Of a stretch of 64,000 nucleotides of DNA, positions 20,410 through 50,980 are shown piece after piece. Origin of the DNA: an uncultured Gammaproteobacteria bacterium (GTDB lineage: Bacteria; Patescibacteriota; Patescibacteriia; UBA1558; S5-K13); NCBI GenBank assembly GCA_964424195.1, contig CAYRHT010000001.1:70102-134101 (forward strand). Reading direction: 5' to 3'. Numbering within the stretch: position 1 is the stretch's first letter; each line of letters begins with the position of its first letter. A program made the translations under genes and the position numbers. The notes below the pieces were generated by a model, which saw only the letters and a list, made by a program, of their open reading frames with translations, had not been told where the DNA came from and ran no database searches.

Positions 20410-20523
20410 TTTGTTTTTCTTCCTTTCTTTTTCTCATTTAACTTAACGTTAAATGAGCTTAATGTCTCGTTATTTATACGAGCTTTTATTATTTATATAA
20501 ATTATATACAACTTAATATATCT

Positions 20524-20552: not shown

Positions 20553-20564
20553 ATGTTTTAATTT

Positions 20565-20915: not shown

Positions 20916-20928
20916 TTTAAATATTTTA

Positions 20929-23791: not shown

Positions 23792-23915
23792 ATAATTAAA
23801 AACTCAAATTTATTATTTAATTCGATATGTTTATTATACTAATAATTCCTAGTTTAGGTCAATCTAATTTTTTAATTTAATTTGTAGTTTTCCCTATTTA
23901 TTGTATTATTAACTT

Positions 23916-32616: not shown

Positions 32617-33432
32617 ATGTCTCTTTTAGAAGAAACAAAATTTTTCTTAAAACAGAATAATATTTTGCCTAGTAAATCAAGAGGGCAGAATTTTTTAATT
32701 TCTGAAGATGTTTTAGAAAATATTATATCTTCAGCAAATTTAAAGTCCGGAGAAAATGTTTTAGAGATTGGTCCCGGAATTGGAACATTGACCAGAGCTT
32801 TGATAAGAGAAAATGTAAATTTAAAAGTTATTGAATTGGATAAAGAATTAGTTAAAGTTTTGGAACCTCTAGCAAAATTAAATAATTTTGAAATAATTTT
32901 TAATGATGTTTTAAAGATTAATCTAGAAAAGATTTTAGCAATTGATTTTTTAAAAAATTACAAAATTGTTTCAAATTTACCATATAATATTACTTCTCGT
33001 TTTTTAAGAATTTTTTTAGAACATCAATATCCACCGCAAGAAATGGTGTTAATGTTACAAAAAGAAGTGGCGGAGAGGATAATAAACAAAGATGGTAAAT
33101 GGTCTAAATTATCAGTGATGTGTAATTTCTATGCTACTCCTGAATACCTATTTACAGTCTCTAAAAGTAGTTTTTTACCAGAACCTAAAGTAGAATCAGC
33201 AGTGATTAAATTTAAAATTAAAACTCCTCCTCAGATTGATCAGCAGAAATTCTGGCAATTGGTTAAGGTAGGTTTTTCTTCTAAACGAAGGACTTTAATT
33301 AATAATTTAGCTAGTGGTTTAAAAATTGAAAAAGAGAAAGCTAAAGAGATTTTAGAAAACGTTGGTCTAGATCAGAAAATTAGAGCGGAAAAGTTAGAAA
33401 TAGAGGATTGGATTAATTTGTCATCTGGATAA
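32617..33432 (+). CDS. rsmA: 16S rRNA (adenine1518/1519-N6)-dimethyltransferase KsgA/RsmA
   Basis: RGQNFLISEDVL...LEIGPGIGTLT SAM motif and NLPYNIT. Confidence 0.85.
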   Translation: MSLLEETKFFLKQNNILPSKSRGQNFLISEDVLENIISSANLKSGENVLEIGPGIGTLTRALIRENVNLKVIELDKELVKVLEPLAKLNNFEIIFNDVLKINLEKILAIDFLKNYKIVSNLPYNITSRFLRIFLEHQYPPQEMVLMLQKEVAERIINKDGKWSKLSVMCNFYATPEYLFTVSKSSFLPEPKVESAVIKFKIKTPPQIDQQKFWQLVKVGFSSKRRTLINNLASGLKIEKEKAKEILENVGLDQKIRAEKLEIEDWINLSSG

Positions 33433-33507
33433 AAAGTTAGTATAATTAATATACAATATTATTAAGTCTAACTTGGTTTGGAGTTATTTATTTAGTTAAA
33501 TTAATAT

Positions 33508-34314
33508 ATGAGTGATTCATTTTTTAAAAACGATTTAGAGTCAGAAGAAGCTTCTTTAGAAGAGAGTGTTGAGGGCCAGGATAAGAAATTATTTTCTAAA
33601 ATAAATAATCGTTTTTCTGATGATAAAAAGAATGCAAAAATAATAATTTTTGTTGGTGTTTTAGCTTTAGTTTTAGGTGCTTGGCATTTATTATCAGAAG
33701 TTAAAAATGCCTTTGTATTTTCACCACTTGTTTTAGAGGATAAGACAGATGTTATTGATGGTTTGAATAGAATTAAGGACACAGATGGTGATGGCATATC
33801 AGATTATGATGAAAAATATATTTATAGTACTAGTCCTTATTTAGCAGACACTGATAGTGATGGCATCTCAGACTATGATGAAATTATGGCTGGACAAGCT
33901 CCATTATGTGTAGGAAATACTTGTGCAGATAACTTAGAAGAGAACTTTAATTCAGAATCTTCTGAAGTTGAAAATGGAAAATTGATGAATTTAGAAGAAT
34001 TGAAAGATTATTTAGTTGAAGCTGGTTATCCAGAATCAGAAGTTAATAAATTAAGTGAAGAAGATTTAAAATTGATTTATGCAGAAGTAGAAAAATCAGT
34101 GGGTAATGAAGAATATACTTATTCTGATATAGAGACAGATCAATCTGCTAGTGGAGAATCTCCTTCAGCAGAACAATTAGAACAATTGCAGAATTTACCA
34201 ATTGAGCAAATTAAAGAACTTTTAGTTCAAGGTGGAGCAACAATGGAACAATTGAATTCTATCTCCGAAGGAGAATTAAGAGGATTATATTTAGAAGCTT
34301 TAAAAAGCTTATAG
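33508..34314 (+). CDS. Membrane-anchored acidic protein with DxDxDG calcium-loop repeats
   Basis: Single TM (IIIFVGVLALVLGAW), DTDGDGISDYDE and DTDSDGISDYDE loops, acidic C-terminus, 268 aa. Confidence 0.5.
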   Translation: MSDSFFKNDLESEEASLEESVEGQDKKLFSKINNRFSDDKKNAKIIIFVGVLALVLGAWHLLSEVKNAFVFSPLVLEDKTDVIDGLNRIKDTDGDGISDYDEKYIYSTSPYLADTDSDGISDYDEIMAGQAPLCVGNTCADNLEENFNSESSEVENGKLMNLEELKDYLVEAGYPESEVNKLSEEDLKLIYAEVEKSVGNEEYTYSDIETDQSASGESPSAEQLEQLQNLPIEQIKELLVQGGATMEQLNSISEGELRGLYLEALKSL

Positions 34315-34345
34315 TAAAGTTAGTCTTTAAAAATAAAAATTTAGT

Positions 34346-37300
34346 ATGACTCTAGCTAAAAACAAAAAGATATTTATTATTACATTTTTAATAGTTTTTT
34401 TATTTACAGCTAGTATTGGGGGTCTTACTTCTAAAAATGTTAAAGCTCAATTATTGCCAATGCCAGTTATAGATTGGACACCAGCAAAAGTAATAGTGGC
34501 AGATATTCCAGCAGAAACTCATTGGTGGGCAGATGTTGTTAGTTGGATCAAAGAAAAGAGTTTTACTAAAATTATAGCAAATGCTTTTAGTAGGACTTTT
34601 CAAAGGTATATGGAAACTTTGGCATATAATAGTGCTAGTTTTTTAGCAGGAGGTATTGAGGGTGGAAAAAGTGCTTGGAGTACTGATAATTGGAATTCAT
34701 ATATGGTGGATGCTAGGGATGCTGCTACAGCTGAATTTTTGGATTCTTTAGCTAGTGGTTATGATTTTGATATTTGTAAACCACCTGGTGGAATTAATAT
34801 CCAAAATAAAGTTAATTTGATTATATCAACTAATGAGGATAAAAGAGAACCAAGATGTTCTTTGAATGATATAAAAAAGAAATGGGGAGATTTAGGAGAG
34901 AAGCTTCAAAATGATCCTTTGACTTTAATGAAAATAAATAATCAATCTTTGAAAGAATTGGGTTTTGATAAGTTTACTTCTGGTTCAATGCCAACTCTTG
35001 ATGATTTTAATGAAGTTAGAGCTAAACTTTTACAAAGCAGTATTAATATCAAAGAATCAGATTTAGGATATATTCAAGAGGTTGAAAATGAACTTGCCCG
35101 ACAACAACAATTAAAAGAAGAAATGGCGGAAAAGGAAAGAATTAATCCAGACGGTTCAAAACCGAAGAGAAATCCAATAACCGGAGATGTAATTGTTCCA
35201 GCAGAGGTTGCTAAAGGTGACTTAGGAACAGTATGGAATACTTCTAAAGAATCAGCAGCGACTTTAAGTGATGATCCTGTAGTTAATATAGCAAATATAT
35301 TTTTAAATACCTTAGTAAGTAAAAGTTTAAGAGGCTTAATAAATAGATTATTTATTCCAAAGCCTCCTCAATATGATGAAGTTACTGAAGACAGAGGTTT
35401 AATATCTAATTTTAATAGAGAAGTTAATATTGTTGAAAAGACCTTTGCTCAAATTAAAAAGATTTCTTATAACATCAACTTGACTGATATAGATGTGATT
35501 GCTGAAATGGAAATGGATTTAGGTAATGATCTTCCTGGAATAATGAATAATAAGACTATTAGTTCTGATTTTGCTGAAGCTTTAAGAAAAGCTCAAGCTG
35601 GAGAAGTTCTTACTTTAAAAGAAGCTATTGAAGAAAATCTAGTAGATCAGAATAAATGGTTTGGATATATTGATGTAGCTAGTCAAAATCCTAAGCAACC
35701 TAGTGTAGTTGAAGGATTTTCGGCTGATAATATTAAAAAATTAGTTAAGAATAGGGTTGTTTCTGTGGGTTGGCTTTTTGCAGCTGAAAAAATAAAAGAA
35801 CTTAAGGGACAAATAATTAGAGGTTGTAGTTCCCAAGGATGTACCTTAGAAAATGTTTTAGAAGAATATGATAAATCTGGAACTTATAATGTTCTTGAGA
35901 ATGAAGGAGAAGACCCTCAAATTTATAAAAATGAATATTGTGGTTGGCGATCAATTAATGCTGAACCATATTTTATAGATATTAATAATGCTAATGATTG
36001 TGAATTAAATGAAGCTGGTCAGTTTAATGGAATTAGTGGTATAGAATTGAAATGGTCAGGGGCTAGTGATTCTATTTCTGGTAAATGTTACAGATATGAA
36101 GATCTTAATGGCGATAGTATTATTGATGAGATTAGTTTAGAGGCTGAAAATCGAGAAACTTGTGAAACTCTTGAGCCATCATTTGAACCAGAAGTTAATG
36201 GTTTAGGTGGATATTATTATTACGAATGGGAACCAGGTGGATGTCTAATTAAAGAATTAGACGAATCACCTTTATGTCATTTAGTTGATCCAAATACTGT
36301 TTTGAAAGCTCCGGCTCAACAATGTGGAGCAGAAGGTTATTATAGTATCCTAGAAACTAGAAATACTGGTAGTCGTCAGGAAGATTGTGCTGATGTTAAA
36401 CATTGTATTGAAGAAGATGATGATGGAAGATGTGTTGGTGGTTATGATTATTGTGTTAAAGAAGAAAACATTTGGCGTTTTAATGGCGATTCTTGTAGCA
36501 AGCAATTTAATTCTTGTACTACTTTAATTGATGATCAAGGACAACGAGAATCTTACTTAATAGATACTTTAAGAGATTGTCCTCAAGAAGAAGTGGGCTG
36601 TCGGGACTATATTTTTGAAAAAGAACTTATAGATGATCAATATGTTTGGGATAATGATGCTCCAAAAGCTTATTTCAATTCTTCAGTAGAAGAATGTAAT
36701 GACAATGCTTTAGGATGTAATGAATTTATCCAGATTAAACCGGGAGTTAATTTAATAGCTAACGGCAGTTTTGAAATTAATGAGGGACCAGAAGATGAGA
36801 AACCAGATTTTTGGAATTTAAATAATGGGAGGTTTAGTTTAGAAAGAGATGCTTATTTAGGAAACTATTCTTTAAAACATATTGGCGGAAATGAAGATTT
36901 ATTATCAAAAGAAAATCTTTTAATTCCTGATAAAGGTTTATACACTTTAAGTTATTATGTTCGAGCTGAAGATTCAGATGTTCAAGTAAAACCTAAGCTT
37001 TTAGTTGCTAACCAAAATGGTGTAACTATCCCATTGTCTAATGAAGATGCTATATTTAATCCTGGAGAAGTAATTAATAATTGGCAAAGAGTTTCTGGAC
37101 ATTTTTCAATTCCAGAAAATCAAAATGTTATTAGTGTTGATTTAATATTTCAAATTAAAGGTGATGTTTATTTAGACGGTGTTCAATTAGAATTGAATGA
37201 GCTGGTAGATAGTGATCTTAATGAAGGAGAAGGAGATACAACTACTTATCAAGAATATGGACAAGTATCTCAAGCTTATTTTAAAAAAGCTCCAGATTAT

Positions 37301-40300
37301 TTAAATTGTGAAGACTATAGTTTAGATTCATATAATTGTGATCAAGAATATCATCCTTGTTGTGACTATGTAAAATATTGTCCAGTTGAAGATTTATCTT
37401 GTTCAGCCTTTTATCCAATAAATGGAGATCCTTTTGTACCGGCTGTGATTAATAATGAGGATCAGTGTGTAGCAGAGTGTAATAATTATCAAACCTTTAG
37501 TGCTTTACCAAGTTATTTTGATAATCTAGAAGCCTTAGAAGAAAGTGGAGAGGAAGCTATTCCTAATGATAGTAATTTTATTGCTGAAAGTGCTGAAGAT
37601 TGTTCAGAACCATCTTGTGAATTATTTACAAATATTGATAAGTTAGAATTAGGTGCAGAGGCTAAAGAATATTACAGTGCTGTTCGTCAGTGTGTTAAAC
37701 CAGATGATTCAGGAGTAAGTAAAGAATTATACTATACTTGGGAAGGATCTGATACTTCTGCTTTCCAATTAAAAACTTGGGAATTATTAGCTAGTGATGA
37801 TGAAGATCATTTAAATGGTGAGGGTGGAAAGGCTCCTTGTACTAATGTATTAATTGGTAATACAAGTTGTTTAGATGATGTTAATAATGTAGAAGAATGT
37901 AATCCAGAAACTAATTTAGACTGTCGAACTTTCTATGATGAAGATGCTCTTCCCCATAACCGTTTACTTTCTAAAACTATTCCAATTACTGAAGAATGTA
38001 TAAATGTTCGAAGAGAAATTTCTAATCAAGTTTACAAAATAATTCCTTCAATGAGTAATGCTTGTGATGTATCTAATTTAGGATGTACTACTTATCAAGG
38101 AAATGATAGTAATAATGTTCGGAATATATTTAGAGAAGATTTTGAAAGTGGTTCTACTGCTGGTTGGATGGCTGATATAGATGGTGGAGGTAGTAGTATT
38201 AATTTAGTACATTCTTCAGAAGCTATTCATTATAATGGTAGTTCAATGAAAGTTTGGGTAGGAGATGATTCAGAAGCAATTTGGATTTCATATAATTTAA
38301 CTGAAGCTGGGGAAGTAGTTTTTCCAGGTAAACAATATTCTTTAAGTTTTTGGGCTAAATCTTTTGGAGATAATACTTCTGGTTTTTATCCAGCTCAAAA
38401 TTATGATGGTCTTGAGAATACTGGAGGCGTACTTTCTTTAAATTCTTTGTTATATAACAAAGCTCAAGCTAGTGATGACGATGCTTCATTAATTTTTGAT
38501 AATAATCTTTCAGTAATTAATCGAGAGTGGTTATTATACAACTATAATGTAACTGATTTTAAAACTGACCAAAATGGTGATGTTGTTTTGAGTTTTAAGA
38601 TTAATATTGATAATAGTATTTATGAATATGATGGTATTTATATCGACAACATTATCCTTAAAGCTTTGACTAGTAGTTTTGATAAGATTAAAGATTCTTG
38701 GCAAACTCCAAGAGTTTGTTTAGATAATGATTATTTAGGATGTCAGGCTTATCAAGATCCAAGTAATAATATCTCTTATCTATATCAATTTACTGATTTA
38801 TGTCCAGAAGAAAATATTGGTTGTCAGGCGATGATTGATACTCAAAATTCAAGTATGCCGGGACAACAAACCTTTAATGCCTATTGTTCAGAAGGTAGTT
38901 CAGAAGAAGAATGTAATTTAGGAAATTATTATTACCAGAATGATTCTAATGTTCCTGATGATAATATATTTGATAGTACAGTTATTGTTCCTAGTGATGA
39001 TTTAGTTTACATTGTGGCTGATAATGATCATAGTTGTTTATCTGGTAATAAAGGTTGTCAGGAGATGTCAATTATTGATAATGAGGGTGTTAATCAAGCT
39101 ATTAATATAGTAAGTAATCCAGATCATTATGTAGCTCATGATATGTATGGTGAAAATAATAATATTTTATGTTTAGATGAATATCAAAATTGTGTTTCCT
39201 TTAGTAACTTAGAGGGTTCTAAATTACATAAAATACATCCTCGAAATTTAACTTGTGAATATCAAGAGGAAGATACAGAGAGAAATATTCCAGCTGGTTT
39301 TTACAATCAAGATGGAGAAAATTGTGCTGGTTTAATTTATAGTAAAGCTTATGATGATTTTACCTTTAATATTGTAGAACAATGGAAACCTTATGATGAT
39401 TATCAAAATCAATATGCTGGAGTTTGTCCAACAGAAGAAAATTCTTGTTCAGGATTTATAGACCCTCTAGATAATTTAGATTTTAGTGATTATGTTTATT
39501 CTCATTTAGGAATTAATTTAAATTATAATCATCCTAGTGAATGGCGTCAGGCTTCTTGGTCTAAGGACAACGCTGTGATTGATAATTTTGGTCCCGAAGG
39601 AATTAGTTATCATCCGGCAAGTAATGAAGATGATTATGAGGGTCTTAATATAATTCTTAGCGGGGATCAAAACCTATTAATCTATCGAGGGCCAGATTAT
39701 ACAGATAATATTTTTAATTTTAATGTAGCAGCAGACACTACTTATCGTTTAAGTGCCCGAGTTAAACTAGAAGATGCTGATTCAGTAATGACTTTCTTAA
39801 GTTGTAAACCTAATTCTAGTAGTTCTCAGGATTCCTTTGAGGGTTATTTTGTAAATGAGGATTGGTATGAGGGTGAAAATAATATTCCTTATGCTTTCCC
39901 AGCTATTAAATCAAATTATTCAACTACAAATAATGATCAATGGCAATATATCTATGGTTTATATGAGATTTTACCGGGAGCTCAGTATTGTAATATGGCT
40001 TTCTATATCAATGGAGAATCTGGATCTAAGTTTACCATTGCTGATATGAATTTGGAGAAAGTAAGTGGAGATTATTATTACTTAGATAATGATTATCTTG
40101 ATTATGATTCTTGTAATTCAGCTAACTTAAAAGAGGGCTGTGTATTATTCCATGATATATCAGAAACAGAATTAAAATGGAATCATCAAGTAAGTTATGA
40201 AGAAAATAGATTAGCCCCAGGAGATTCTAGAAATCCTAGCGATGTTAATGCTTTATTAAAAGTAACTCGAGATAAGCAGTGTGCTGAATGGTTGACTTGT

Positions 40301-43300
40301 GGAGCTAGTTTAAAAACTATTGACCAAGCTAGTGGTCAAACTAAAGAGGCTTGTGTTTCTTTGATTGCTTGTGATGAATTATCAGAGGATAAGGCAGGAG
40401 TTTGTACTCATCCTTTCTTTAATGGAGCAACAGCTCAACCATTAACTTTAGATTACTATCATCAAATGAGAGGAAAGTCTGAATGGTCAGATTTAGATTA
40501 TAGTGGTTATTCAATTCCAGGACTATATCCTCTTGATTCTTTAACTCCTTTAGAAGTTGTTAATGATACTGGCACTAGTACAGTATTAGGACATTTAGTT
40601 CTTAAACAAAATAGTTTAGGACAGCCATTTGTATATAAATTAGGGGTAGGAGTAGACAATTATTTAACAAATATTTATACAGAAGATGTTTCTGGTTCAG
40701 AAGAAATAGGTATTAATTTGGGATCTAATTTAATAGATGGAGAAGGTTTTGCAGATAAAGCTTGTCGTTTGTATCCAGAAGTAAATTCTCCTTTCCCTCA
40801 AATACAATTTAGTAAGATTGCTCGAGGAGAATTCTCAGATAGTGATAGTATGTCTTCTGAAGCTCCTTATCTAGATATTCGAGATAAAGCGGCTAATTTT
40901 GCTAATGCTAATATTTGTCAGACTGGTAGTGGTTCTGCTTTAGAAGACGAAGAATATCCTTTTGCTCAAGGTACAGACTGTGAATGTCATTATACTAAGG
41001 CTACTTATGGTTCTGAAACTTTATACTTCCCTTATGACTATGATAATCATATTCCAGATTCAATAGAAATAGATTATGGTAGCGGGGGTAGTACTTTATC
41101 AATTAAAAATAAGACTAAATATTTAGGATGGAAAGGATTTTGTTTAGACAAAGAACAATCTTTGTTTATAAATAACACTGAATCTTTGACAGAAGATATG
41201 AAAGATTACCGATGTTTAACTTGGTATCCCATTGATTTATTAAGTGGAGAAATTGATGCTTATGGTGCTAGTGAAGAGGCAGAAGTTTCTTATAATAAAG
41301 TTGGTGATAATGATAAATTATGTGTAGTAGGGGAAGATTATGTAACTACTGAGGATCGAGTCTATTGTGGAAGAGTTGAACTAGGTTATTGTAATGTTTT
41401 ATTATATATCCCAGAAGGATCTAAAGTTAATCCAGATAAAGTTGCTCAATATACTAGCGAGGTGCTTAATTATGATAATGAAGGTAATCAAGTGGGAATG
41501 TTAGATACAGGGTGGTTACCAGCTAATAAATTTGAATATCATGATGGTACAGTTCCTTATTGCGAAGGATCTTCTTGTGTTGGTAATCCTGTAATATTTT
41601 CATCAATAGCTGCCAATAGATTAGAAGCAACTCCTGGAGTTCCTAATAATGGAAAATTTCCAGCAGCAGATTTTGGAATATTAATGTCTGATTGTAGTTT
41701 TATTGGTGGAACATGTACTAGTATAGATGGTACTTCTAGTGATGTATTTGCTGGACAATATGTATTTAATGAGTTATTTGATCCTCCTGTTGATTCAGAA
41801 ATAAAATATTTTTTCCTTGATGAAGGAGTAAATAAAGATGGTGATAAAAATATTAATACTCATACAAGCGGTTCTAGTAAATATCAAACTGGAAGTAAAA
41901 TAGTTCTCGAGGGTTATTCACGACCTTCTGATAGAGACTGTGAAGATGGTTTAGCTGCTACTGAAAGTTTGGCCCAGAAATATGCCGCAGGCAGTACTAC
42001 TTGGTGCAGAAGTCAAGGAAAACATCTTGTTGATTGGAAATGTCACAGTGAAGGATGGTGTAGTTGGGCAAATAGATGGGATGCTTGTAAGGTTTGGTGT
42101 AATCCTTTGGAATTTAATTATTATGTTTATGCTGATCCAGTAGCAAATGATATTTGTACTAATACAGATTGTTCAGGGAATGATAAGGGATTACAGTGTT
42201 TAGAAACTAAAAATGATATTTATGTTAATTTAGCTAGTTATGTTGATGAAGATTTAGATTTTGATATTACGGAATGTAAGATACAAGAAGTTAACGATTT
42301 TGACTGTGATTTTGTACAATGTGTTCAAAGCCAAAATAATTCTCCATATTATTGTGAACAATATAATGATTGTTTGATTTATAATTATAATGCAGGTGAA
42401 GACTTTACAGATGAAAATGAGAATGGAATGTGGGATGAAGGTGATGGAACATTTATGGATCCAAGTGAACCTTTGGTAGACACTGGTTATGATACGGTTG
42501 ATGGTGAGGGTAATCCAATAACAGTAGGTGCTGACAATGAAATATGGGATGGACCAATTATTATATCGAATGATTTGTATTATGAAGCTTATGGTGAAGC
42601 TAATGATGATGGTGACATAGTTCAAGAGTCATGTCTTAATTCTGAAATAGAGGTTAATTGTACTTCAGATAATGGTTATGATACAGGTAGTGAAGGTACT
42701 GACTGTGGAGATGATTGTATTAAGACATGTAAAACTTATGTAGATTTAGATAATGTTGTGTATAATTCAAATAATTTTTATTTGAATCGGTTAGATTTAG
42801 ATAAACTTGGTGATGATGTTTGTATTGTTAATGGAGAATCTATTTGTGCTAAAACCTTATCTGGTAATGTTAATGAATATAACGAGCAAAGAGCAATTAG
42901 ATTTGATGAAATTTATGAACTTTCTGGAATAGATGGAGCAGAATGGTCAACAGTTAATTCTCCTTTTTCAGCTAATTCTGTAGAAGATTTTCAGCCGTTG
43001 GATTTAAGAAATTTAATTAATGTTGTAGATAGATCATTTACTAGTAATGATATTTTTAATGATTATTATTCTGATTTAAATGCTTCCCCAGCAGAAGATT
43101 TAGGAGATGCTAAGTATAGATTAGAAAATGTAGTTATTGAAATACCAAATAATAATTTTCAACAATATGATGCCAATGTAAAAAATTGGTCGCGCCCAGA
43201 GGATTGGTCTGGTAATTATTGGAAGATAGCTAAGAGTTCTGAGTCAGAAATTAGACAAACTAATTATGATGAAAATAATGGATTCTCTGAAGGAGATTCA

Positions 43301-43915
43301 GGAATAAGTGTTAATAGTACTCATAATCAACATATTATTAAAGAAGATGGTAATTTATATGCTTATTTAATGTTCTATGCTTACACTTCTCCAGGTGCTA
43401 CTCCTATTCAAGAAATTAGTATTGATTGGACTGGAGTAAATGTTGATAAATTGGTATTAAGAGGTCCTTTTAAGAATCATAAACAAGATTGTGTTCGAAA
43501 ATGTGGAGTGGTTTATGGTGAAGATTATGATGCTATTGAGAATTATGAAGCTATTAATTGGGATTCAGAAGACAATAATTGTGTTGTTAATTCAGATTGT
43601 AGTCCCTATGATGATGAGAATGAGAGATATTGTTTCTCTAAGACCTGGGGAGATCATCCAGATGCTTGTATTGAAGATAATCAGGATCAATCTCAAGATG
43701 GTTATTTCTCTTACAGCTTTATATACGCTTGTGATGCTTTGAATGATTATTGGAAAGAAGATTGTACTGGTTATGATGCTAATATTCAAGGTGGTTGCTG
43801 TGTTTATACTCCAACAGTTACTATTACTGATAATTGGGGAAAGCAAAAGACAGAAAATCTAGGTGATTGTAATAATGGTGATAATATTTGTTCAGTAATT
43901 GTAATTCCTAAATAA
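34346..43915 (+). CDS. Giant (3189 aa) secreted cysteine-rich multidomain protein; candidate adhesin or surface apparatus
   Basis: Signal peptide. Very high Cys content with CxxC/CxC spacings. Three CenC/CBM4_9-like jelly-roll modules (NGSFEINEG... around 36761-37200; REDFESGSTAGW... around 38131-38650; a third around 39590-40060). No internal stop across 9.5 kb. Confidence 0.6.
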   Translation: MTLAKNKKIFIITFLIVFLFTASIGGLTSKNVKAQLLPMPVIDWTPAKVIVADIPAETHWWADVVSWIKEKSFTKIIANAFSRTFQRYMETLAYNSASFLAGGIEGGKSAWSTDNWNSYMVDARDAATAEFLDSLASGYDFDICKPPGGINIQNKVNLIISTNEDKREPRCSLNDIKKKWGDLGEKLQNDPLTLMKINNQSLKELGFDKFTSGSMPTLDDFNEVRAKLLQSSINIKESDLGYIQEVENELARQQQLKEEMAEKERINPDGSKPKRNPITGDVIVPAEVAKGDLGTVWNTSKESAATLSDDPVVNIANIFLNTLVSKSLRGLINRLFIPKPPQYDEVTEDRGLISNFNREVNIVEKTFAQIKKISYNINLTDIDVIAEMEMDLGNDLPGIMNNKTISSDFAEALRKAQAGEVLTLKEAIEENLVDQNKWFGYIDVASQNPKQPSVVEGFSADNIKKLVKNRVVSVGWLFAAEKIKELKGQIIRGCSSQGCTLENVLEEYDKSGTYNVLENEGEDPQIYKNEYCGWRSINAEPYFIDINNANDCELNEAGQFNGISGIELKWSGASDSISGKCYRYEDLNGDSIIDEISLEAENRETCETLEPSFEPEVNGLGGYYYYEWEPGGCLIKELDESPLCHLVDPNTVLKAPAQQCGAEGYYSILETRNTGSRQEDCADVKHCIEEDDDGRCVGGYDYCVKEENIWRFNGDSCSKQFNSCTTLIDDQGQRESYLIDTLRDCPQEEVGCRDYIFEKELIDDQYVWDNDAPKAYFNSSVEECNDNALGCNEFIQIKPGVNLIANGSFEINEGPEDEKPDFWNLNNGRFSLERDAYLGNYSLKHIGGNEDLLSKENLLIPDKGLYTLSYYVRAEDSDVQVKPKLLVANQNGVTIPLSNEDAIFNPGEVINNWQRVSGHFSIPENQNVISVDLIFQIKGDVYLDGVQLELNELVDSDLNEGEGDTTTYQEYGQVSQAYFKKAPDYLNCEDYSLDSYNCDQEYHPCCDYVKYCPVEDLSCSAFYPINGDPFVPAVINNEDQCVAECNNYQTFSALPSYFDNLEALEESGEEAIPNDSNFIAESAEDCSEPSCELFTNIDKLELGAEAKEYYSAVRQCVKPDDSGVSKELYYTWEGSDTSAFQLKTWELLASDDEDHLNGEGGKAPCTNVLIGNTSCLDDVNNVEECNPETNLDCRTFYDEDALPHNRLLSKTIPITEECINVRREISNQVYKIIPSMSNACDVSNLGCTTYQGNDSNNVRNIFREDFESGSTAGWMADIDGGGSSINLVHSSEAIHYNGSSMKVWVGDDSEAIWISYNLTEAGEVVFPGKQYSLSFWAKSFGDNTSGFYPAQNYDGLENTGGVLSLNSLLYNKAQASDDDASLIFDNNLSVINREWLLYNYNVTDFKTDQNGDVVLSFKINIDNSIYEYDGIYIDNIILKALTSSFDKIKDSWQTPRVCLDNDYLGCQAYQDPSNNISYLYQFTDLCPEENIGCQAMIDTQNSSMPGQQTFNAYCSEGSSEEECNLGNYYYQNDSNVPDDNIFDSTVIVPSDDLVYIVADNDHSCLSGNKGCQEMSIIDNEGVNQAINIVSNPDHYVAHDMYGENNNILCLDEYQNCVSFSNLEGSKLHKIHPRNLTCEYQEEDTERNIPAGFYNQDGENCAGLIYSKAYDDFTFNIVEQWKPYDDYQNQYAGVCPTEENSCSGFIDPLDNLDFSDYVYSHLGINLNYNHPSEWRQASWSKDNAVIDNFGPEGISYHPASNEDDYEGLNIILSGDQNLLIYRGPDYTDNIFNFNVAADTTYRLSARVKLEDADSVMTFLSCKPNSSSSQDSFEGYFVNEDWYEGENNIPYAFPAIKSNYSTTNNDQWQYIYGLYEILPGAQYCNMAFYINGESGSKFTIADMNLEKVSGDYYYLDNDYLDYDSCNSANLKEGCVLFHDISETELKWNHQVSYEENRLAPGDSRNPSDVNALLKVTRDKQCAEWLTCGASLKTIDQASGQTKEACVSLIACDELSEDKAGVCTHPFFNGATAQPLTLDYYHQMRGKSEWSDLDYSGYSIPGLYPLDSLTPLEVVNDTGTSTVLGHLVLKQNSLGQPFVYKLGVGVDNYLTNIYTEDVSGSEEIGINLGSNLIDGEGFADKACRLYPEVNSPFPQIQFSKIARGEFSDSDSMSSEAPYLDIRDKAANFANANICQTGSGSALEDEEYPFAQGTDCECHYTKATYGSETLYFPYDYDNHIPDSIEIDYGSGGSTLSIKNKTKYLGWKGFCLDKEQSLFINNTESLTEDMKDYRCLTWYPIDLLSGEIDAYGASEEAEVSYNKVGDNDKLCVVGEDYVTTEDRVYCGRVELGYCNVLLYIPEGSKVNPDKVAQYTSEVLNYDNEGNQVGMLDTGWLPANKFEYHDGTVPYCEGSSCVGNPVIFSSIAANRLEATPGVPNNGKFPAADFGILMSDCSFIGGTCTSIDGTSSDVFAGQYVFNELFDPPVDSEIKYFFLDEGVNKDGDKNINTHTSGSSKYQTGSKIVLEGYSRPSDRDCEDGLAATESLAQKYAAGSTTWCRSQGKHLVDWKCHSEGWCSWANRWDACKVWCNPLEFNYYVYADPVANDICTNTDCSGNDKGLQCLETKNDIYVNLASYVDEDLDFDITECKIQEVNDFDCDFVQCVQSQNNSPYYCEQYNDCLIYNYNAGEDFTDENENGMWDEGDGTFMDPSEPLVDTGYDTVDGEGNPITVGADNEIWDGPIIISNDLYYEAYGEANDDGDIVQESCLNSEIEVNCTSDNGYDTGSEGTDCGDDCIKTCKTYVDLDNVVYNSNNFYLNRLDLDKLGDDVCIVNGESICAKTLSGNVNEYNEQRAIRFDEIYELSGIDGAEWSTVNSPFSANSVEDFQPLDLRNLINVVDRSFTSNDIFNDYYSDLNASPAEDLGDAKYRLENVVIEIPNNNFQQYDANVKNWSRPEDWSGNYWKIAKSSESEIRQTNYDENNGFSEGDSGISVNSTHNQHIIKEDGNLYAYLMFYAYTSPGATPIQEISIDWTGVNVDKLVLRGPFKNHKQDCVRKCGVVYGEDYDAIENYEAINWDSEDNNCVVNSDCSPYDDENERYCFSKTWGDHPDACIEDNQDQSQDGYFSYSFIYACDALNDYWKEDCTGYDANIQGGCCVYTPTVTITDNWGKQKTENLGDCNNGDNICSVIVIPK

Positions 43916-43921
43916 TTTAAT

Positions 43922-46831
43922 ATGTTTAGTAGATTATATAAAAAATTAGTTCAGAAATGGTTAAATCTTTCTCGAAAAAGAAGGGCATTTTATACTACTC
44001 TTTTTTCTGTAGTGTTATTAATCATAATAATACCGTTTTCAGCGAAAGCAACTGTTGGGGCATCTATAGCTAGTTTTTTAGCTTCAATTATTGGTATAAT
44101 CCTTGGTTGGTTAGCTCCAGTTATAACTCTAGAAATTAATATGTTTGTTAAATTTGCGCAGTTTAATAATTTCTTAGATGTCACTGCTGTTAAAGAAGGT
44201 TGGAAATTAGTCCGAGATGTTTGTAATATGTTTTTTATTATTATCCTTTTAATAATTTCTTTTGCTACTATTCTAAGAATAGAGTCCTATGCTTACAAGA
44301 AGTGGTTAGGTAAATTAGTAATCGCTGCTATTTTAATAAATTTTTCTAAGACTATTACTGGACTTTTAATTGGATTTTCTCAGATTATAATGTTAACCTT
44401 TGTATCTGCTTTTAGAAGCGCAGTAGCTGGTAATTTAGGTGCTGGTTTACATTTAAATGAAATGTTAGCCGCTAGTAAGTCAGGAGAATTAGGAAAATTT
44501 TCAGATAACAAGGATGATAAATTAGATGCTTTTGCTGTCTTTGGAGCTTTGTTGTTAGCTCTAGCTTTGTTAACAGTTTTTGTAGTAGTAATGATAGTGA
44601 TGATAGTCGTTTTAGTAGGTAGGATAGTAACCCTCTGGGTTCTAGTTATTCTATCACCAGTAGCTTATCTATTACAGGCTTCTCCTTTTGGAGAGAAATA
44701 TGCTAAACAATGGTGGCAAGAATTAGGTAAAAACTTAATTGCTGGTCCTGTTTTAGCATTCTTTTTATGGCTAGCTTTTTTAACAGTTCAAAGAAGTGGG
44801 GGAAAAGTTGTTGAACATATGGAGAATCCAATTGATGTTTCTGGTAGTTCAGGAGTGGGAGTTGCAGCTAGTGCTCCAGTGTTTATTTCAGGGATTAGTG
44901 AAACTTCGGCTTTAATGGATTATATTATTACCATTGCTTTATTAATAGCTGCTTTAAAGATTACTCAAGATTTAGGAGTAATTGGTTCTAGTTTTGCTGG
45001 TAAAATGCAACAGAATTTAGGTAAGATGGGTAAGAAAGCAGCTAAGGCAGGTACTTGGGGTTTAGCTAAGTATACCGATAGAAAAATTGGTTCTGCTAAA
45101 GGGAATAAATTTGGAATTAGCGCTCATAATATTGTTGATAAGGCTAAAGGAATTAAGGAATCATGGGCAAAATCAGCAGATAAAGAAAGATCTAAAATTA
45201 GAAGAAGAGGTGCTGATAATGCAAGTCATAGTTCTGGTCTCGTAAGAGCTGTTCTTGGTTCAGGTAAAGATTGGGCTGATCGATATGGTCCAGTTGGAAC
45301 CCTTGGAGTTAAGGGTGCTAAAAATATAATTAGAGATACCTTTAGTAAGGGTTTAAACACTCATGCTAAAACATCTGAAAAGGCCGAAGAAGAGAAGAAA
45401 AAATATGATGAAGAAATGGCAAGAAGAGAGACTATTGAATTAGAAATCATTGCTAAACCAAATGCTGCCCAAGAAAATTTTGATAAAGCAAAAGCAGATC
45501 AAGAAACACATAAACTTGAATTAACAGAACTTACTGAGGAAATGGAAAAAGCAGAAAAAGATGGAGATTTAGACGAGGAGACAAAAAAAGAATTCAAAAA
45601 GAGATTAAAGAAGAAGAAAAAACAAATAGAGGATGACAAAACTAAAGTAGTCGCAGCTGGAACAGTAAAAGAAGAATGGGATAATTTACCACAAGAAGAA
45701 AAAGACAAAGTTGAAGCTGATAAGGAATATGTAAAATCTATAAGGAGGGATAGAGAAGATATAAAAGGACTTGAATATGAAATGGGACTACACAAGAAAG
45801 GTTCAAAAGAATATGAAGATTTGAAAGATCAAAAAGAAACTGCGGAAATGTCTTTAATAGATAAGGAACATAAACATGGTTTAGATATTTATGGTTCAGA
45901 AGGAGAATTTAAAAATCAATCTTCAATAGAATTGAATACTAATTTAAAGAAACAAACAGGAATAAAACAAAAAGCAGATAAAAAATTATCTAAACTTTCT
46001 ATGGGAAGATCACTGGCTGCTAGAGTAGAAGAAAGATCTCAAATAGAAGAAAGTAAAAAGAAATATAAGCATCTTAAGGGTCATCCAGAATTAATCCAAT
46101 ATTTAGATTCAGCTCTTCAAAAGGGTGAAGAATTTGATGCTATAGGTCTTATGGAAAAATTAGCTGAAGATGGTAATGAAAACGAATTTTTAAAACATTA
46201 TGGATATGAAAGTGGTCCAATAGGCCTACATAAATTTGTTCAAGAAAAATTAATAAAAGAGCAAGGTATAGATGAGCAGTTGGCATTGGGACTTCAGAAT
46301 GATATTGGTGAAATAGCTAAAGAAACAGGGCATTGGGAACTTGCCGAAACAACGGATATTAGTAAAACTGGAAAACTTAGAAGTATTATTACTGAACAGA
46401 AAGATGAAAATGGAAATATTGAATATGACCTTAAAGAGCATACTATCCGCGCCCATGTTGAATTTTCTAAAAGAGATAATAGAAGAATGATGCAGAATAC
46501 AAATAGATTAGGTATTGGATCAGAAAATGGTGAAACTGGAGAATTTGAAATAAGTGACCTTGGTCGTTTAATTCTTTTAAATCTTAGTAAAAATCATGAA
46601 TTTATAACTAAAAGAATCAATGAGTTAAATCCAAATCTTTTATCTACTATTACTAGACCAAAAGTGAGAAAACAAGTTGAGAAAATTATCGGTAAAAATT
46701 CTGTCTTATATCAAAAACTTGATGACATGGTTGGTGAGAGAGGAGCTATTAAAGATACAGGTGCTGCTACAGAAAGTCTTATTGGATATGATGAGATCCA
46801 AGAAGCTAAGAAGAAAAAGATTGGAAAATGA
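43922..46831 (+). CDS. Polytopic membrane protein (7-8 TM) with a ~600-aa Lys/Glu-rich coiled-coil tail; VirB6/TrbL-like candidate
   Basis: Hydrophobic helices in the first ~340 aa, then a charged low-complexity tail (EEKKKYDEEMARRE...KKKKKQIEDDK...). Starts 7 nt after the giant gene. Confidence 0.45.
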   Translation: MFSRLYKKLVQKWLNLSRKRRAFYTTLFSVVLLIIIIPFSAKATVGASIASFLASIIGIILGWLAPVITLEINMFVKFAQFNNFLDVTAVKEGWKLVRDVCNMFFIIILLIISFATILRIESYAYKKWLGKLVIAAILINFSKTITGLLIGFSQIIMLTFVSAFRSAVAGNLGAGLHLNEMLAASKSGELGKFSDNKDDKLDAFAVFGALLLALALLTVFVVVMIVMIVVLVGRIVTLWVLVILSPVAYLLQASPFGEKYAKQWWQELGKNLIAGPVLAFFLWLAFLTVQRSGGKVVEHMENPIDVSGSSGVGVAASAPVFISGISETSALMDYIITIALLIAALKITQDLGVIGSSFAGKMQQNLGKMGKKAAKAGTWGLAKYTDRKIGSAKGNKFGISAHNIVDKAKGIKESWAKSADKERSKIRRRGADNASHSSGLVRAVLGSGKDWADRYGPVGTLGVKGAKNIIRDTFSKGLNTHAKTSEKAEEEKKKYDEEMARRETIELEIIAKPNAAQENFDKAKADQETHKLELTELTEEMEKAEKDGDLDEETKKEFKKRLKKKKKQIEDDKTKVVAAGTVKEEWDNLPQEEKDKVEADKEYVKSIRRDREDIKGLEYEMGLHKKGSKEYEDLKDQKETAEMSLIDKEHKHGLDIYGSEGEFKNQSSIELNTNLKKQTGIKQKADKKLSKLSMGRSLAARVEERSQIEESKKKYKHLKGHPELIQYLDSALQKGEEFDAIGLMEKLAEDGNENEFLKHYGYESGPIGLHKFVQEKLIKEQGIDEQLALGLQNDIGEIAKETGHWELAETTDISKTGKLRSIITEQKDENGNIEYDLKEHTIRAHVEFSKRDNRRMMQNTNRLGIGSENGETGEFEISDLGRLILLNLSKNHEFITKRINELNPNLLSTITRPKVRKQVEKIIGKNSVLYQKLDDMVGERGAIKDTGAATESLIGYDEIQEAKKKKIGK

Positions 46832-46863
46832 AAATATTTTGTTTAAATTTATAATTAGTATAT

Positions 46864-48249
46864 ATGATATATAATCCCGATACTAAAAAAACAATAGAAA
46901 TATTGAAGAATGATTTGAAAAGAATAACATTGTCAGACAACCACCATGAAGCTTTTTTGTTTTTTACTAAATTAGAAAAATTAATGAATACAGACTATTC
47001 TGCTACTTTAGATAAATCTGATCTTTCATTGCATGAAGATATGGTTATAAAGGCTAAATTTATAGCTTTATATAGATTAGGGGAAGATGAGGTTATTGAA
47101 CTAATAAATACAAAATTCAATTATATTAATAAAATCGAAGGATATAATATTTTAGATAAAATAGATTTCTTTTTAAAAACAAATTTTTATTTTTTTAATG
47201 ATCGAAACGATTTTAAAGAAAAGCTTAGAAATGTCTTATCTGAAAGCAAAATAAAAATAGGTTCAGAAAACATATCTATCAATAATGAAAAAGTAGATTC
47301 TAATATAGCTAACTGGTTAAGAGATTTTAGAAATAGTAATTTAGAAGAAGGTTTCTTAGATGCTTTAAAAGTTAGTGAATATATTGCAAGAGTTCAAAAT
47401 ATTAAATCTTTATCAAAAAAAGAAAAAAAAAGAATAGAAGTTTTAATTAAGTTGTATGCCCATTTAAAGTTAGATTCTAATAACGAGGGAATGGAAGAAT
47501 CATTTCTTTTTGAAAATGAAAATAGAGAATTAATGAGGTTAGAAAGAGGTGTTTTTAGTAAGATTGAAGATAGTGTTTTAAAGGATACATATGATTTATA
47601 TAATGAAGTTCAGAAAAAAACAGGAGGGGAATTATATAATTCTGATAAAAAGATAGATAAAGAGCCTGTTAAAAAAGTTTTTGAAACTCCAACAAAAGAA
47701 CAAGCTCAAGTTGAAAAAGTAGAAGAAAAGAAGTCTGTAGAAAAGCTATTAGAATCATACAAAGCTTTTGAAATAGATTTAAAGAGTATGGATGTTATTA
47801 TTAAGGAGCTAGAAAGATATAAGAATAATCCTAATGGTCTTTTTGAAAAATTTAATCAAGATTTAGAAAAAGAAAATAGAGACAGTCTTCTAGCTACTTT
47901 AGTCTTTATTTGTCAGAATAAGTTATTAGATAAATTCTTAAAAGAAAATGAAAATTTACTAATTGAATTTAAGAAATATTTGAGTTTTAAATTATCTGAT
48001 GATGTTGTTAAAAGTATAATTAACAAATCTACTAGTTTGGAAACAGTTAGTTTGTATTTACAATTTTTACTATTTAAGAAGATTAAACTCTCTGCAAAGA
48101 ATGCTGGTCTGTTTGGTATGCATTTAGCTAATATTTTAAAGCAGAATGGTCAAGAAAAATATTTTCCTATGGTTTATGGAGATGTTAATTTAGAACAATT
48201 TGTTTGGCGAGAAGTAATTGAGGAAAATGGTTTAGTAAAATTTAAATAA
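46864..48249 (+). CDS. Hypothetical soluble protein (461 aa)
   Basis: Long ORF with a Lys/Glu-rich middle and no recognisable motif. Probably co-transcribed with the two upstream genes. Confidence 0.4.
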   Translation: MIYNPDTKKTIEILKNDLKRITLSDNHHEAFLFFTKLEKLMNTDYSATLDKSDLSLHEDMVIKAKFIALYRLGEDEVIELINTKFNYINKIEGYNILDKIDFFLKTNFYFFNDRNDFKEKLRNVLSESKIKIGSENISINNEKVDSNIANWLRDFRNSNLEEGFLDALKVSEYIARVQNIKSLSKKEKKRIEVLIKLYAHLKLDSNNEGMEESFLFENENRELMRLERGVFSKIEDSVLKDTYDLYNEVQKKTGGELYNSDKKIDKEPVKKVFETPTKEQAQVEKVEEKKSVEKLLESYKAFEIDLKSMDVIIKELERYKNNPNGLFEKFNQDLEKENRDSLLATLVFICQNKLLDKFLKENENLLIEFKKYLSFKLSDDVVKSIINKSTSLETVSLYLQFLLFKKIKLSAKNAGLFGMHLANILKQNGQEKYFPMVYGDVNLEQFVWREVIEENGLVKFK

Positions 48250-48344: not shown

Positions 48345-49409
48345 ATGTTAAAAAATATCAATTTTGATCAGAGATTGCAAAATATTCCTGATAAAATTTG
48401 GTCTATTATAGTGCAAATCGATCAATTACAAGGACAGTGGATTGCAGGGGCAAAATTGAGCTCCCAAGTTTTAGGTCGTCTCAAACGATCTGTTTTAATT
48501 ACTTCTACTGGTGCCTCTACTCGTATTGAGGGGTCGAGACTTTCAGATGAAGATATTGAAAAAATGATGAAAGGTATTGATATTCAAAAATTTATAGACA
48601 GAGATAAACAAGAGGTTCAGGGTTATTACGAATTACTAGAGAATGTTTTTAATTCTTGGAGAACACTTCGTTTTAATGAAAGTATTATTAAGCACTTTCA
48701 TAATGAATTGCTTAAATATGTGGATAAAGATCAGGAACATAAAGGTAAATACAAGAAACAGGAGAATAAAGTTCATATGATTAATGAGGCTGGTGAATCA
48801 GTGGGTATATTATTTGATACTACTCCTGCTTATCTTACTCCTAAAGAAATGATGGAATTAATCGAGTGGACTGATAAAACTTTAGAAGAAAGAAAATATC
48901 ATCCACTTTTAATTGTTGCTAATTTTATTGTTGAATTTTTGAAAATTCATCCATTCCAAGATGGTAATGGTCGTGTTTCTCGTGTCTTAACGAATCTTTT
49001 ATTACTTAAAGAGGGCTATGAATATATGCCCTATGTGTCTCATGAAAAATTAGTAGAAGATAATAAGCCAGATTATTATATTGCATTACGTAAGAGTCAA
49101 AAAACAATCGGCTCTAAAAAAGAAGATATTATTTTATGGCTTGAGTTTTTTTTCACTGTTTTTTTAAAGCAATCTCAGATGGCGGTCGATTTGCTTTCAA
49201 AAGAAAATGTGGAAAAGCTTCTAACTCCTAAGCAAATGGCAGTTTGGCAGTATTTGCAGGAAAGTGATAAAATAACTACTCCTATGGAAATTGCTCAAAA
49301 AACTAAAGTTGCTCAGCCAACTGTTAGACAGGCTTTGGATAAATTGATGCGACTTAAAAAAATTGAACGAATTGGTCAAGGACGTAGTACTGGTTACAGA
49401 ACATTTTAA
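48345..49409 (+). CDS. Fic-family protein (AMPylator-type) with C-terminal wHTH
   Basis: Canonical Fic motif HPFQDGNGRVSR. A C-terminal winged-helix-like segment. Confidence 0.85.
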   Translation: MLKNINFDQRLQNIPDKIWSIIVQIDQLQGQWIAGAKLSSQVLGRLKRSVLITSTGASTRIEGSRLSDEDIEKMMKGIDIQKFIDRDKQEVQGYYELLENVFNSWRTLRFNESIIKHFHNELLKYVDKDQEHKGKYKKQENKVHMINEAGESVGILFDTTPAYLTPKEMMELIEWTDKTLEERKYHPLLIVANFIVEFLKIHPFQDGNGRVSRVLTNLLLLKEGYEYMPYVSHEKLVEDNKPDYYIALRKSQKTIGSKKEDIILWLEFFFTVFLKQSQMAVDLLSKENVEKLLTPKQMAVWQYLQESDKITTPMEIAQKTKVAQPTVRQALDKLMRLKKIERIGQGRSTGYRTF

Positions 49410-49524
49410 ACTAAAAGATAAAAATATATAGCTGGAATCTATTTTTTTATTATTTATCTTGTTAATTGGAATTAGGTATGTTATAATGTTTCTGTAAGTA
49501 CTAAATTAATTAGTAACTATAGAA

Positions 49525-50148
49525 ATGATAGAAAATATTAAAAATTTGCCATATTTGTCTAAAACAGCTTTAGTTAATTTTTTGGATAAAAATTCTAATA
49601 CTTTAAGAAACTTAATAAGTTATTGGGTAAAAAATAAATCTTTGATCCGTTTAAAGAGGGGTTTTTTTGTATTTAAAAAATTTTTAGAAAAAAAAGATAA
49701 TTCTTTATATTATTCTCGATTTTTAGCAACCAAAATGATTGAACCCAGCTATTTAAGTAAAGAATTTATATTACAAGATTATCAAATGTTAACAGATGTA
49801 GTTTATAATTATTCAATAGTAACTACTAAAAAGACAAATTCTATTAGTAATGAGTTTGGTGTATTTAATTATCAATCAATCAAAAAAAATCTTTTCACTG
49901 GATTTTCCATGAAATCCTATGGTTCTATGGAATGGAATGTTGCTAGTAAGGCTAAAGCGTTATTTGATTATATTTATTTTAATCAGAATAAATTCAGTAA
50001 AATTAGCCAGAATGAATTATTAGGTTTGAGATTGGATTTAGATGTTATGAATAAACAAGATTGGAAGAAATATGAAAGATATTTATCAGTAGCACCATTT
50101 AAAATGATGGATATTTATAAAATAATGAAAAATTATGTTACCAAATAG
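49525..50148 (+). CDS. AbiEi-like antitoxin/transcriptional regulator (type IV TA) candidate
   Basis: 207 aa. N-terminal LSKTALVNFL...LIRLKRGFFVF resembles the AbiEi wHTH pattern. 14-nt overlap with the AbiEii gene. Confidence 0.5.
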   Translation: MIENIKNLPYLSKTALVNFLDKNSNTLRNLISYWVKNKSLIRLKRGFFVFKKFLEKKDNSLYYSRFLATKMIEPSYLSKEFILQDYQMLTDVVYNYSIVTTKKTNSISNEFGVFNYQSIKKNLFTGFSMKSYGSMEWNVASKAKALFDYIYFNQNKFSKISQNELLGLRLDLDVMNKQDWKKYERYLSVAPFKMMDIYKIMKNYVTK

Positions 50149-50980
50149 TTTAAAAAATATAGTTCAATCAGGTAGAGATAGGAATGCTTCTGTTGAATAT
50201 ATAAAAATAGAGTTAAAAGAGGTGTTAATTTATTATACTCTTAATTTTATTTATAATTCCCCTAAGTGGAATGGGTTAATTTTTGGTGGCGGGACAGCTT
50301 TGAAAATAATTGGTGAGACGTCGCGCTTGTCTGAGGATCTAGATATGGATTATATTGAGGGAAAATTTGATTCAGATTCATTCTTACGCGAGTTAATTGA
50401 GTATTTTAAACAACTAGGATTTGATAATATCAATTATACTTCTAGACAAAAGGGTAAGATTATTACTCTAAAATTTCCAATATTACAGGAATTGGGTTTA
50501 GTGAATAATATAAAATCAGAAAGTAATTTATTGTATTTAAAAATAGAAATAGAAAAAAATAAATATTCTGTTTATGGGATAAAAGCTACACCTATTATGA
50601 AAAGTAATTTGTTTTTTGTAGTAAAAAATTATGATTTAGAAACATTATTTGCGAATAAAATAGGTGCAATATTAGGAAGGAAAGAAAAAGTTTTTCAAGA
50701 TAAATTTGATTTTAAAGGACGGGATTTTTATGATTTAATTTGGTTTTTAGAGAAAGGTATTAAGCCGAATTTAAAAAGAGTACAGCAAATTGTTAAGGCT
50801 GAACAAGGTGAGGTAATAAAAGATTATGATGGTATTTGGAAACTAATAGAAAAGAGAATAAATAAAATTAATTCCAAAGGGATTTATACAGATATGAAGA
50901 ATTTAGTAGAGTCGCCAGAAGGAATAAAGCAGTTAGCGGATAATTTTCTAGATATTTATAGAGACTTGATAAAAAAATAA
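50135..50980 (+). CDS. AbiEii-family nucleotidyltransferase toxin (DUF1814-like)
   Basis: LIFGGGTALKIIGETSRLSEDLDMDY matches the GGTAL...R.SEDLD nucleotidyltransferase motif of AbiEii. Confidence 0.7.
   Translation: MLPNSLKNIVQSGRDRNASVEYIKIELKEVLIYYTLNFIYNSPKWNGLIFGGGTALKIIGETSRLSEDLDMDYIEGKFDSDSFLRELIEYFKQLGFDNINYTSRQKGKIITLKFPILQELGLVNNIKSESNLLYLKIEIEKNKYSVYGIKATPIMKSNLFFVVKNYDLETLFANKIGAILGRKEKVFQDKFDFKGRDFYDLIWFLEKGIKPNLKRVQQIVKAEQGEVIKDYDGIWKLIEKRINKINSKGIYTDMKNLVESPEGIKQLADNFLDIYRDLIKK

Follow-up and report, generated by a model that had tools for sequence, protein, structure and literature searches.

What purpose is served by a secreted protein of 3189 amino acids (aa) with 108 cysteines, encoded between a small calcium-loop membrane protein and a polytopic membrane protein? 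We addressed this question for a 64-kb stretch of contig CAYRHT010000001.1 (the window; all coordinates are window positions), which has a G+C content of ~29% and carries the gene of this giant protein within a four-gene cluster at 33508-48249 of the + strand. Our analysis indicates that the cluster is the envelope/surface module of a chromosomal, monoderm-type type IV secretion system (T4SS), resembling those of the mating-pair formation FATA (MPF-FATA) class, in a member of the Patescibacteria (candidate phyla radiation, CPR) related to Komeilibacteria and Falkowbacteria. These ultra-small bacteria depend on such a T4SS for their life on other cells. The giant itself probably serves in host recognition, as an adhesin that is exported by Sec, stabilised by disulfides and acts jointly with this T4SS, a function that we infer from its features and its position.

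Gene order and the extended VirB6 subunit

The first gene, g1 (33508-34314, 268 aa), encodes a type-II membrane anchor with TSP3-type loops. It is followed by the gene of the secreted, Cys-rich giant (34346-43915), by that of a VirB6-like protein (43922-46831, 969 aa) and by g4 (46864-48249, 461 aa), with intergenic spacers of 31, 6 and 32 nucleotides (nt). The positions of these open reading frames (ORFs) and their short spacers thus bear out the operon-like arrangement of four + strand genes proposed in the original prediction, with the small correction that the spacer between giant and membrane protein, given there as 7 nt, measures 6 nt. A site TTGTCA-17-TATAAT at 33418-33446 (+), 5' of g1, agrees with 11 of 12 sigma-70 consensus positions, the best score of the region, and is by this consensus match alone a candidate promoter of the operon; terminator-like sites were no commoner in the region than expected by chance (9 observed, 5.5 expected).

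Frameshifts in the giant ORF had been named beforehand as a possible weakness. The ORF is intact: a giant of 3188 or 3189 aa and an identical 969-aa protein were found on numerous contigs of independent origin, one of them ~952 kb long, and in dozens of genomes the orthologues, of 2200-3300 aa, are likewise uninterrupted. An assembly artefact as the origin of the ORF was thus excluded by near-identical copies on independent contigs.

One genome per GTDB species was scanned with the VirB6 membrane domain, which yielded at least 575 loci, the best matches being those of Komeilibacteria (73%), followed by Falkow-, Kerfeld- and Buchananbacteria-type genomes. ORFs were called on 83 loci and searched with iterated hidden Markov models (HMMs), and the canonical order obtained runs from g1, giant, VirB6 and g4 through a ~500-aa protein to PrgI/VirB3, a TraC-like protein and VirB4, after which come a ~200-aa protein and, in some loci, a pilin; in the loci of distant relatives the VirB4 ATPase was identified as DUF87/AAA_10. 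Membership of the genes in one system is visible by synteny in individual loci (L003, L004 and L005). The giant lies directly 5' of VirB6 on the same strand in 45 of the 57 loci with at least 8.5 kb of upstream sequence, and PrgI/VirB4 are found 3-9 kb 3' of VirB6 in 44 of the 57 with at least 7 kb of downstream sequence. In the case of L001, a relative with 47% identity, the same four genes stand in the same order with a giant/VirB6 spacer of 2 nt, and the gene of elongation factor P (EF-P) comes directly after them. Thirteen loci have no VirB4 nearby and include the closest relatives of the window, indicating that the operon is split in this lineage. Many genome records carrying the Patescibacteria-type operon (loci L007, L009, L010 and others) stand under third-party annotation (TPA) titles reading 'uncultured Gammaproteobacteria bacterium', most likely mislabelled records.

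The pilin-like array upstream of the cluster had also been predicted to be linked to it, and all eight of its genes proved to match the VirB2-like T4SS_pilin family (PF18895) with E values from 2e-7 to 2e-12. These tandem paralogues occupy 17690-21513 of the - strand, thus lying 12-16 kb upstream of the cluster and on the opposite strand, and belong to the same T4SS.

The 969-aa protein consists of a membrane domain (aa 1-350, 43922-44971) and a long tail (44972-46831). With ~8 hydrophobic helices, the former has more than the five transmembrane (TM) helices taken as the minimum for a VirB6. Its 756 homologues (E values down to 1e-100) belong to Patescibacteria wherever they are named; TrbL_3 (PF19590) and/or TrbL (PF04610) are precomputed on 15 of the 120 listed homologues, and our own Pfam scan of 32 family members matched TrbL in six (best E 1.1e-5). 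A PDB profile search with the full-length family alignment was swamped by matches of charged or coiled-coil type to the tail, and we used a fold search in its place. The AlphaFold2 (AF2) model of aa 1-400, built from an alignment of 119 sequences, is all-helical with a mean predicted local distance difference test score (pLDDT) of 82.5, and a Foldseek comparison with the PDB ranked four chains of TrwI/VirB6, from the stalk complex of R388, highest (E 5e-3 to 8e-3, probability 1.0). Fold, the Pfam matches of homologues and the synteny with PrgI and VirB4 together identify the protein as an extended VirB6/TrbL subunit, in agreement with the likeness first noticed from its sequence. An unrelated transporter, the other identity considered, was ruled out by fold and synteny.

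The tail had been described as some 600 aa of coiled coil forming an extended surface domain, a view that our data do not favour. The N-terminus of the protein carries a charge of +8 and the basic stretch past the last TM helix (aa 349-480) one of +17, so that by the positive-inside rule both ends are predicted to be cytoplasmic, and with them the Lys/Glu-rich tail, which is most likely cytoplasmic rather than surface-exposed. Nor is the tail uniform: beyond the juxtamembrane stretch lies a poorly conserved Lys/Glu-rich linker (aa ~480-700), and the C-terminal ~270 aa (aa ~700-969) form a conserved domain.

The last gene of the cluster, g4, is located directly 3' of VirB6 in 72 of 85 loci; its product is rich in Lys, Leu, Glu and Asn, has neither TM helix nor signal peptide and is predicted to be cytoplasmic. 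Most relatives carry a protein of ~450-600 aa between g4 and PrgI (at 15629-17467 in L004, for instance) to which no family could be assigned, and another conserved protein, of ~200 aa, comes after VirB4. By HMM comparison (E about 1e-13) the ~500-aa protein and g4 have an N-terminal region of ~100 aa in common, without support from hhalign. We also considered g4 as a paralogue of the ~500-aa family or of the VirB6 C-terminal domain and rejected this, as the iterated-profile signal shrank to this N-terminal region when alignments were defined by position.

T4SSs of the MPF-FATA-like type have been described in Patescibacteria by Wang et al. 2023 (PMC10633639) and Quinonero-Coronel et al. 2025 (PMC12102498), and the gene order shared with PrgI, the TraC-like protein and VirB4 in relatives places our cluster within this described T4SS. 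The cluster had been regarded as not assignable to a described system, whereas it corresponds to the 5' part of the one reported in those studies. The essential T4SS of S. epibionticum (SEML1_0006-0019) includes a VirB6 of ~1088 aa, PrgI, VirB4, lysozymes and six pilins (PMC10633639), and the Patescibacteria system was the first T4SS shown to be essential to its own carrier (PMC10633639; PMC12857230). The survey of the phylum lists VirB4, TrsD, VirB3, VirB6 and VirB2 arrays, with 2-11 pilins per array (PMC12102498); a review of T4SSs, which discusses 'extended VirB6' proteins, gives the same overall picture (PMC12857230). The window shares with these systems an extended VirB6 (~1000 aa, including a large C-terminal domain), tandem divergent VirB2-like PF18895 pilins (eight in this case), a chromosomal location and the absence of a relaxase nearby, and the orthologous loci add PrgI/VirB3, the TraC/TrsD-like protein and VirB4 in the same order. 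It differs in that the VirB4 half is absent from the 64 kb and the pilins are 12-16 kb away on the other strand.

The giant protein and its anchor

Both a signal peptide and a very high cysteine content had been predicted for the giant, and both were corroborated. The 108 Cys amount to 3.39% of its residues, compared with 0.1-0.75% in its three neighbours, and nearly all are conserved in an alignment with 10 orthologues. A hydrophobic segment at aa 9-27 is part of a Sec-type signal peptide (aa 1-34, 34346-34447, +) with predicted cleavage at VKA|Q; A34 and Q35 are invariant in a seven-sequence alignment, A34 being nearly invariant in the wider family, and the VKA|Q sequence fits a signal-peptidase site that would be cleaved between these two residues. 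The protein is very acidic (net charge about -320) and lacks any LPXTG-like motif. A membrane protein of 435 aa encoded at 57139-58446 (+) begins with a TM helix, ends in a multi-TM domain and contains a CHFC motif of the thioredoxin/glutaredoxin kind as well as two more CxxC motifs; its family matches are weak. We regard it as a candidate disulfide oxidoreductase of the extracytoplasmic side, one which could act on the Cys-rich giant.

The signal peptide is followed by a conserved, mostly helical N-terminal domain (aa ~35-510, 34448-35875, +) which defines the family. An exhaustive search of representatives retrieved 1309 representative clusters (50% identity, E <= 1e-3), mostly of 2000-3600 aa, for this region of ~475 residues, with profile matches spanning positions 1-175 and 213-475; a word-indexed search with the first 520 aa had returned nothing, not even the identical protein. 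Pfam and NCBIfam searches gave no usable family for this domain, for g4 or for the 969-aa protein, and a PDB sequence-profile search with the whole giant had no match either.

This domain is central to a different reading of the giant, as a functional counterpart of VirB5, that is a pilus-tip or stalk subunit docked on VirB6 through its N-terminal domain and carried outward by the VirB2-like pilus. In R388, VirB6 is the platform for VirB5 and pilus assembly, and the structures matched by our VirB6-like model come from precisely that stalk complex; moreover, the giant is encoded immediately 5' of virB6 and its family is defined by a helical N-terminal domain. VirB2-like pilins are present in Patescibacteria, where the groupings of VirB4 neighbourhoods in the survey list no VirB5, the protein being mentioned for just one genome having a Gram-negative-type system (PMC12102498). 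However, the AF2 model of aa 1-520 is poor (pLDDT 63, predicted template modelling score 0.33, confident just at aa ~390-510) and gave no significant match among PDB folds, neither to VirB5 nor to others, and a tip subunit of 350 kDa is without precedent. We find a role as VirB5 unlikely and prefer the giant as a T4SS-associated adhesin.

Only one Pfam family, CBM_4_9, was detected in the giant, the whole protein scoring 38.3 bits (cut-off 25.9) summed over two stretches. Module 1 (aa 802-937, 36749-37156, +) starts with NGSFE and scores 24.8 bits (E 3.1e-5); module 2 (aa ~1261-1440, 38126-38665, +), with the sequence REDFESGSTAGW, scores 20.4 bits (E 7e-4), its match covering the first 76 of 136 profile positions, so that each taken singly is under the cut-off. 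A third Cys-poor module (aa ~1728-1908, 39527-40069, +) is a possible further jelly roll, since it aligns to module 1 by hhalign with a probability of 78.6% (E 1.7e-5); it had no Pfam match in the giant and no support from the PDB profile search, and among eight scanned orthologues one gave a weak CBM_4_9 match there (E 0.068). Thus, of the three CBM4_9-like modules originally predicted, the first two are supported by Pfam and the third, whose location agrees with the position near 39590 given there, is plausible through its alignment to module 1. We presume that these modules fold as jelly rolls and may bind sugars. Two segments of the giant thus match the profile of CenC-type CBM4_9 modules (PF02018), for which no catalytic partner domain was found.

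The modules are flanked by a Cys motif, C-x(3-9)-G-C-x(2,3)-[YFMLI], which occurs eight times in the giant where 0.68 occurrences are expected. Identity among orthologues is 0.5-0.67 in the Cys-rich scaffold, 0.37-0.44 in the CBM-like modules and 0.24-0.32 in a hypervariable, indel-rich region (aa ~2400-2800, 41543-42745, +; coverage 0.55-0.64), and the protein ends in a conserved Cys-rich domain (aa ~3000-3189, 43343-43915, +) whose family consensus terminates in ...DNWG.C.... The jelly-roll modules and aa 2400-2800 are thus the most variable parts of the giant, as expected of specificity determinants.

CBM4_9 modules are usually found alongside glycoside hydrolases, and this would also suit a giant that is secreted as an enzyme or toxin, such as an effector which degrades cell walls or glycans and is directed to them by its CBM modules; a hypervariable C-proximal region would be in keeping with such a role, and a wall hydrolase is normally encoded in monoderm T4SS operons (PMC12102498). 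Nevertheless, Pfam, NCBIfam and PDB sequence searches found no catalytic domain in the 3189 aa, the conserved parts of the protein are its Cys-rich scaffold, and a separate hydrolase with Peptidase_M23 and LysM domains is encoded nearby at 26262-27431. An enzymatic giant is thus highly improbable.

The anchor protein g1 has an acidic N-terminus, a single TM helix (aa 45-63), two helical repeats and two TSP3-type Ca-binding loops, DTDGDGISDYDE and DTDSDGISDYDE, which are predicted to be extracellular. It matches Pfam TSP3_bac (E 1.4e-6), and this match together with the single helix substantiates the membrane-anchored Ca-loop protein expected at this position. Orthologues of g1 are found directly 5' of the giant in related loci. 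A TSP3_bac repeat of the g1 type is also present, with six DUF5122 beta-propeller repeats, in a secreted protein of 711 aa encoded at 11573-13708 (-), a candidate for a further surface protein.

Neighbouring genes in the window

The gene of the Peptidase_M23 protein with LysM repeats mentioned above, at 26262-27431 (-), is situated in the interval that separates the pilin array from the giant cluster; these domains are known as additional domains on some VirB1 homologues at Patescibacteria T4SS loci (PMC12102498). The same interval includes a strand switch at ~23800-23900, genes being mostly on the - strand from ~17.7 kb to 23791 and mostly on the + strand from 23916 to ~51 kb, and the GC skew flips there from negative to strongly positive, with a cumulative minimum near 22-24 kb. 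This looks like an origin-type strand switch of replication, but no dnaA was seen in the 64 kb.

On the other side of the cluster, between g4 and the EF-P gene, 48345-50980 (+) encodes a Fic-domain protein with a C-terminal helix-turn-helix and then an AbiEi/AbiEii type IV toxin-antitoxin pair. L001 has none of these genes at that position, and they thus represent a lineage-specific insertion in the window.

Two aminoacyl-tRNA synthetases of the window have foreign inserted domains. The leucyl-tRNA synthetase at 27773-31378 (+, 1201 aa) has an apparent insertion of a Ser_hydrolase/alpha-beta hydrolase domain at aa 579-755 (E 7e-20) as well as a Ham1p-like fragment at aa 249-319, an architecture unusual for this enzyme. 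The other is a ValRS-type class-I synthetase at 2916-6005 (-, 1029 aa) with a Val_tRNA-synt_C arm, into which a His_Phos_1 domain is inserted at aa 438-601 (E 2.9e-37).

Comparison with known systems and proposed role

Compared with TrwI of R388 and VirB6 of Agrobacterium (TrbL, PF04610), the 969-aa protein shares the polytopic helical membrane fold, whereas sequence identity is ~10-16% and there is no direct Pfam match; it has ~620 additional C-terminal residues, as do the 'extended VirB6' proteins (PMC12857230). The context is that of a monoderm and, unlike in those systems, VirB7, VirB9 and VirB10 are absent.

A parallel to the position of the giant is found in the enterococcal plasmid pCF10. 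Its operon encodes the adhesins PrgA, PrgB and PrgC upstream of prgH/VirB6, prgI/VirB3 and prgJ/VirB4. In both cases large secreted surface proteins, presumed to contact the target cell, stand at the 5' end of a VirB6/VirB3/VirB4 operon. This likeness is of position and function only, as no sequence similarity to PrgA, PrgB or PrgC was found by Pfam or PDB sequence searches and the giant lacks LPXTG; it is also ~2.5 times larger, Cys-rich and equipped with CBM4_9-like modules, and is presumably anchored through the separate TSP3 protein. The survey of Patescibacteria T4SSs reports that no adhesins were detected and makes no mention of a giant, Cys-rich or CBM-containing protein (PMC12102498). 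Within our limited comparison with the literature, the pair of TSP3 anchor and giant at the 5' end of the operon is thus apparently a new element.

To approach the linkage from the side of the giant, a conserved motif of its core was searched in Joint Genome Institute (JGI) metagenomes, giving 497 relatives and 80 loci. A g1-like TSP3 anchor stood directly 5' of the giant in 67 of 75 loci, and a VirB6-like gene was found in ~20 of 42 within the 1.5-4 kb available downstream. Anchor and giant thus form the most tightly linked unit and may also function alone, which leads to another explanation, namely that the two are an autonomous surface adhesin or envelope protein, mechanistically separate from the T4SS and often placed beside its operon since both serve the surface or host interaction. 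The pairing of the giant with g1, tighter than that with VirB6 as sampled from the giant, speaks for this, as do the 12 of 57 VirB6 loci without a giant upstream, the essential T4SS of Saccharibacteria, which has none, and the Sec signal peptide that the giant carries of its own. Even so, the 45 of 57 loci that keep a same-strand giant directly upstream of VirB6 are spread over Komeili-, Falkow-, Kerfeld- and Buchananbacteria-type genomes, the spacers between the two genes are very short both in the window and in L001, and the giant stays with VirB6 and g4 where the operon is split. Adjacency of the giant to virB6 is thus frequent and kept across candidate phyla without being universal, and we judge a mechanistically separate adhesin to be rather improbable.

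For the T4SS-associated adhesin that we prefer, several observations have to be set on the other side of the balance. No VirB4, PrgI or VirD4 was found within the 64-kb window, and we infer a complete T4SS in this genome from its relatives. The 969-aa protein of the window itself has no Pfam TrbL match even at E <= 1, and the TM-scores of its model to TrwI are low (0.35-0.47). The N-terminal domain of the giant, in a poor model, resembles no known fold; the Saccharibacteria cluster has neither a giant Cys-rich protein nor a TSP3 anchor; and the ~20 of 42 metagenomic loci with a VirB6-like gene count in the same direction.

Taking the evidence together, we propose the following course of events. 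Sec would export the giant, and its signal peptide would be removed at the conserved VKA|Q; oxidative folding would then give a disulfide-stapled, very acidic scaffold displaying two or three CBM4_9-like jelly rolls and the hypervariable region. The Ca-binding anchor g1, the extracellular face of VirB6 or both could keep this scaffold on the cell surface, where, by analogy with the operon position of PrgA, PrgB and PrgC, it may bind glycans or other surface structures of a host or partner cell by means of its variable jelly rolls. In the cytoplasm, g4 and the tail of VirB6 would play their part, perhaps as docking sites for ATPases or substrates.

A more far-reaching idea, which we put forward tentatively and hold to be possible rather than probable, is that TSP3 anchor and giant are an unrecognised and widespread extracellular part of the Patescibacteria T4SS. 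In that case the giant would be a host-recognition head docked onto either the VirB2-like pilus or the extended VirB6, perhaps in place of VirB5, and its variable jelly rolls and hypervariable region would set the host range in ABY1-type CPR.

Several consequences follow for the study of these bacteria. The annotation of their genomes can be corrected, as the 'hypothetical' membrane proteins of ~1000 aa are extended VirB6 subunits, and the four-gene cluster can serve as a marker of a split T4SS locus. The conserved, lectin-like giant encoded 5' of virB6 offers a concrete candidate for that part of the T4SS which makes contact with the host in Komeili-, Falkow-, Kerfeld- and Buchananbacteria-type lineages, a large and uncultivated section of the CPR. 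The segments in which it varies most are candidates for determining host range; they lend themselves to comparison between genomes and to matching with hosts that co-occur.

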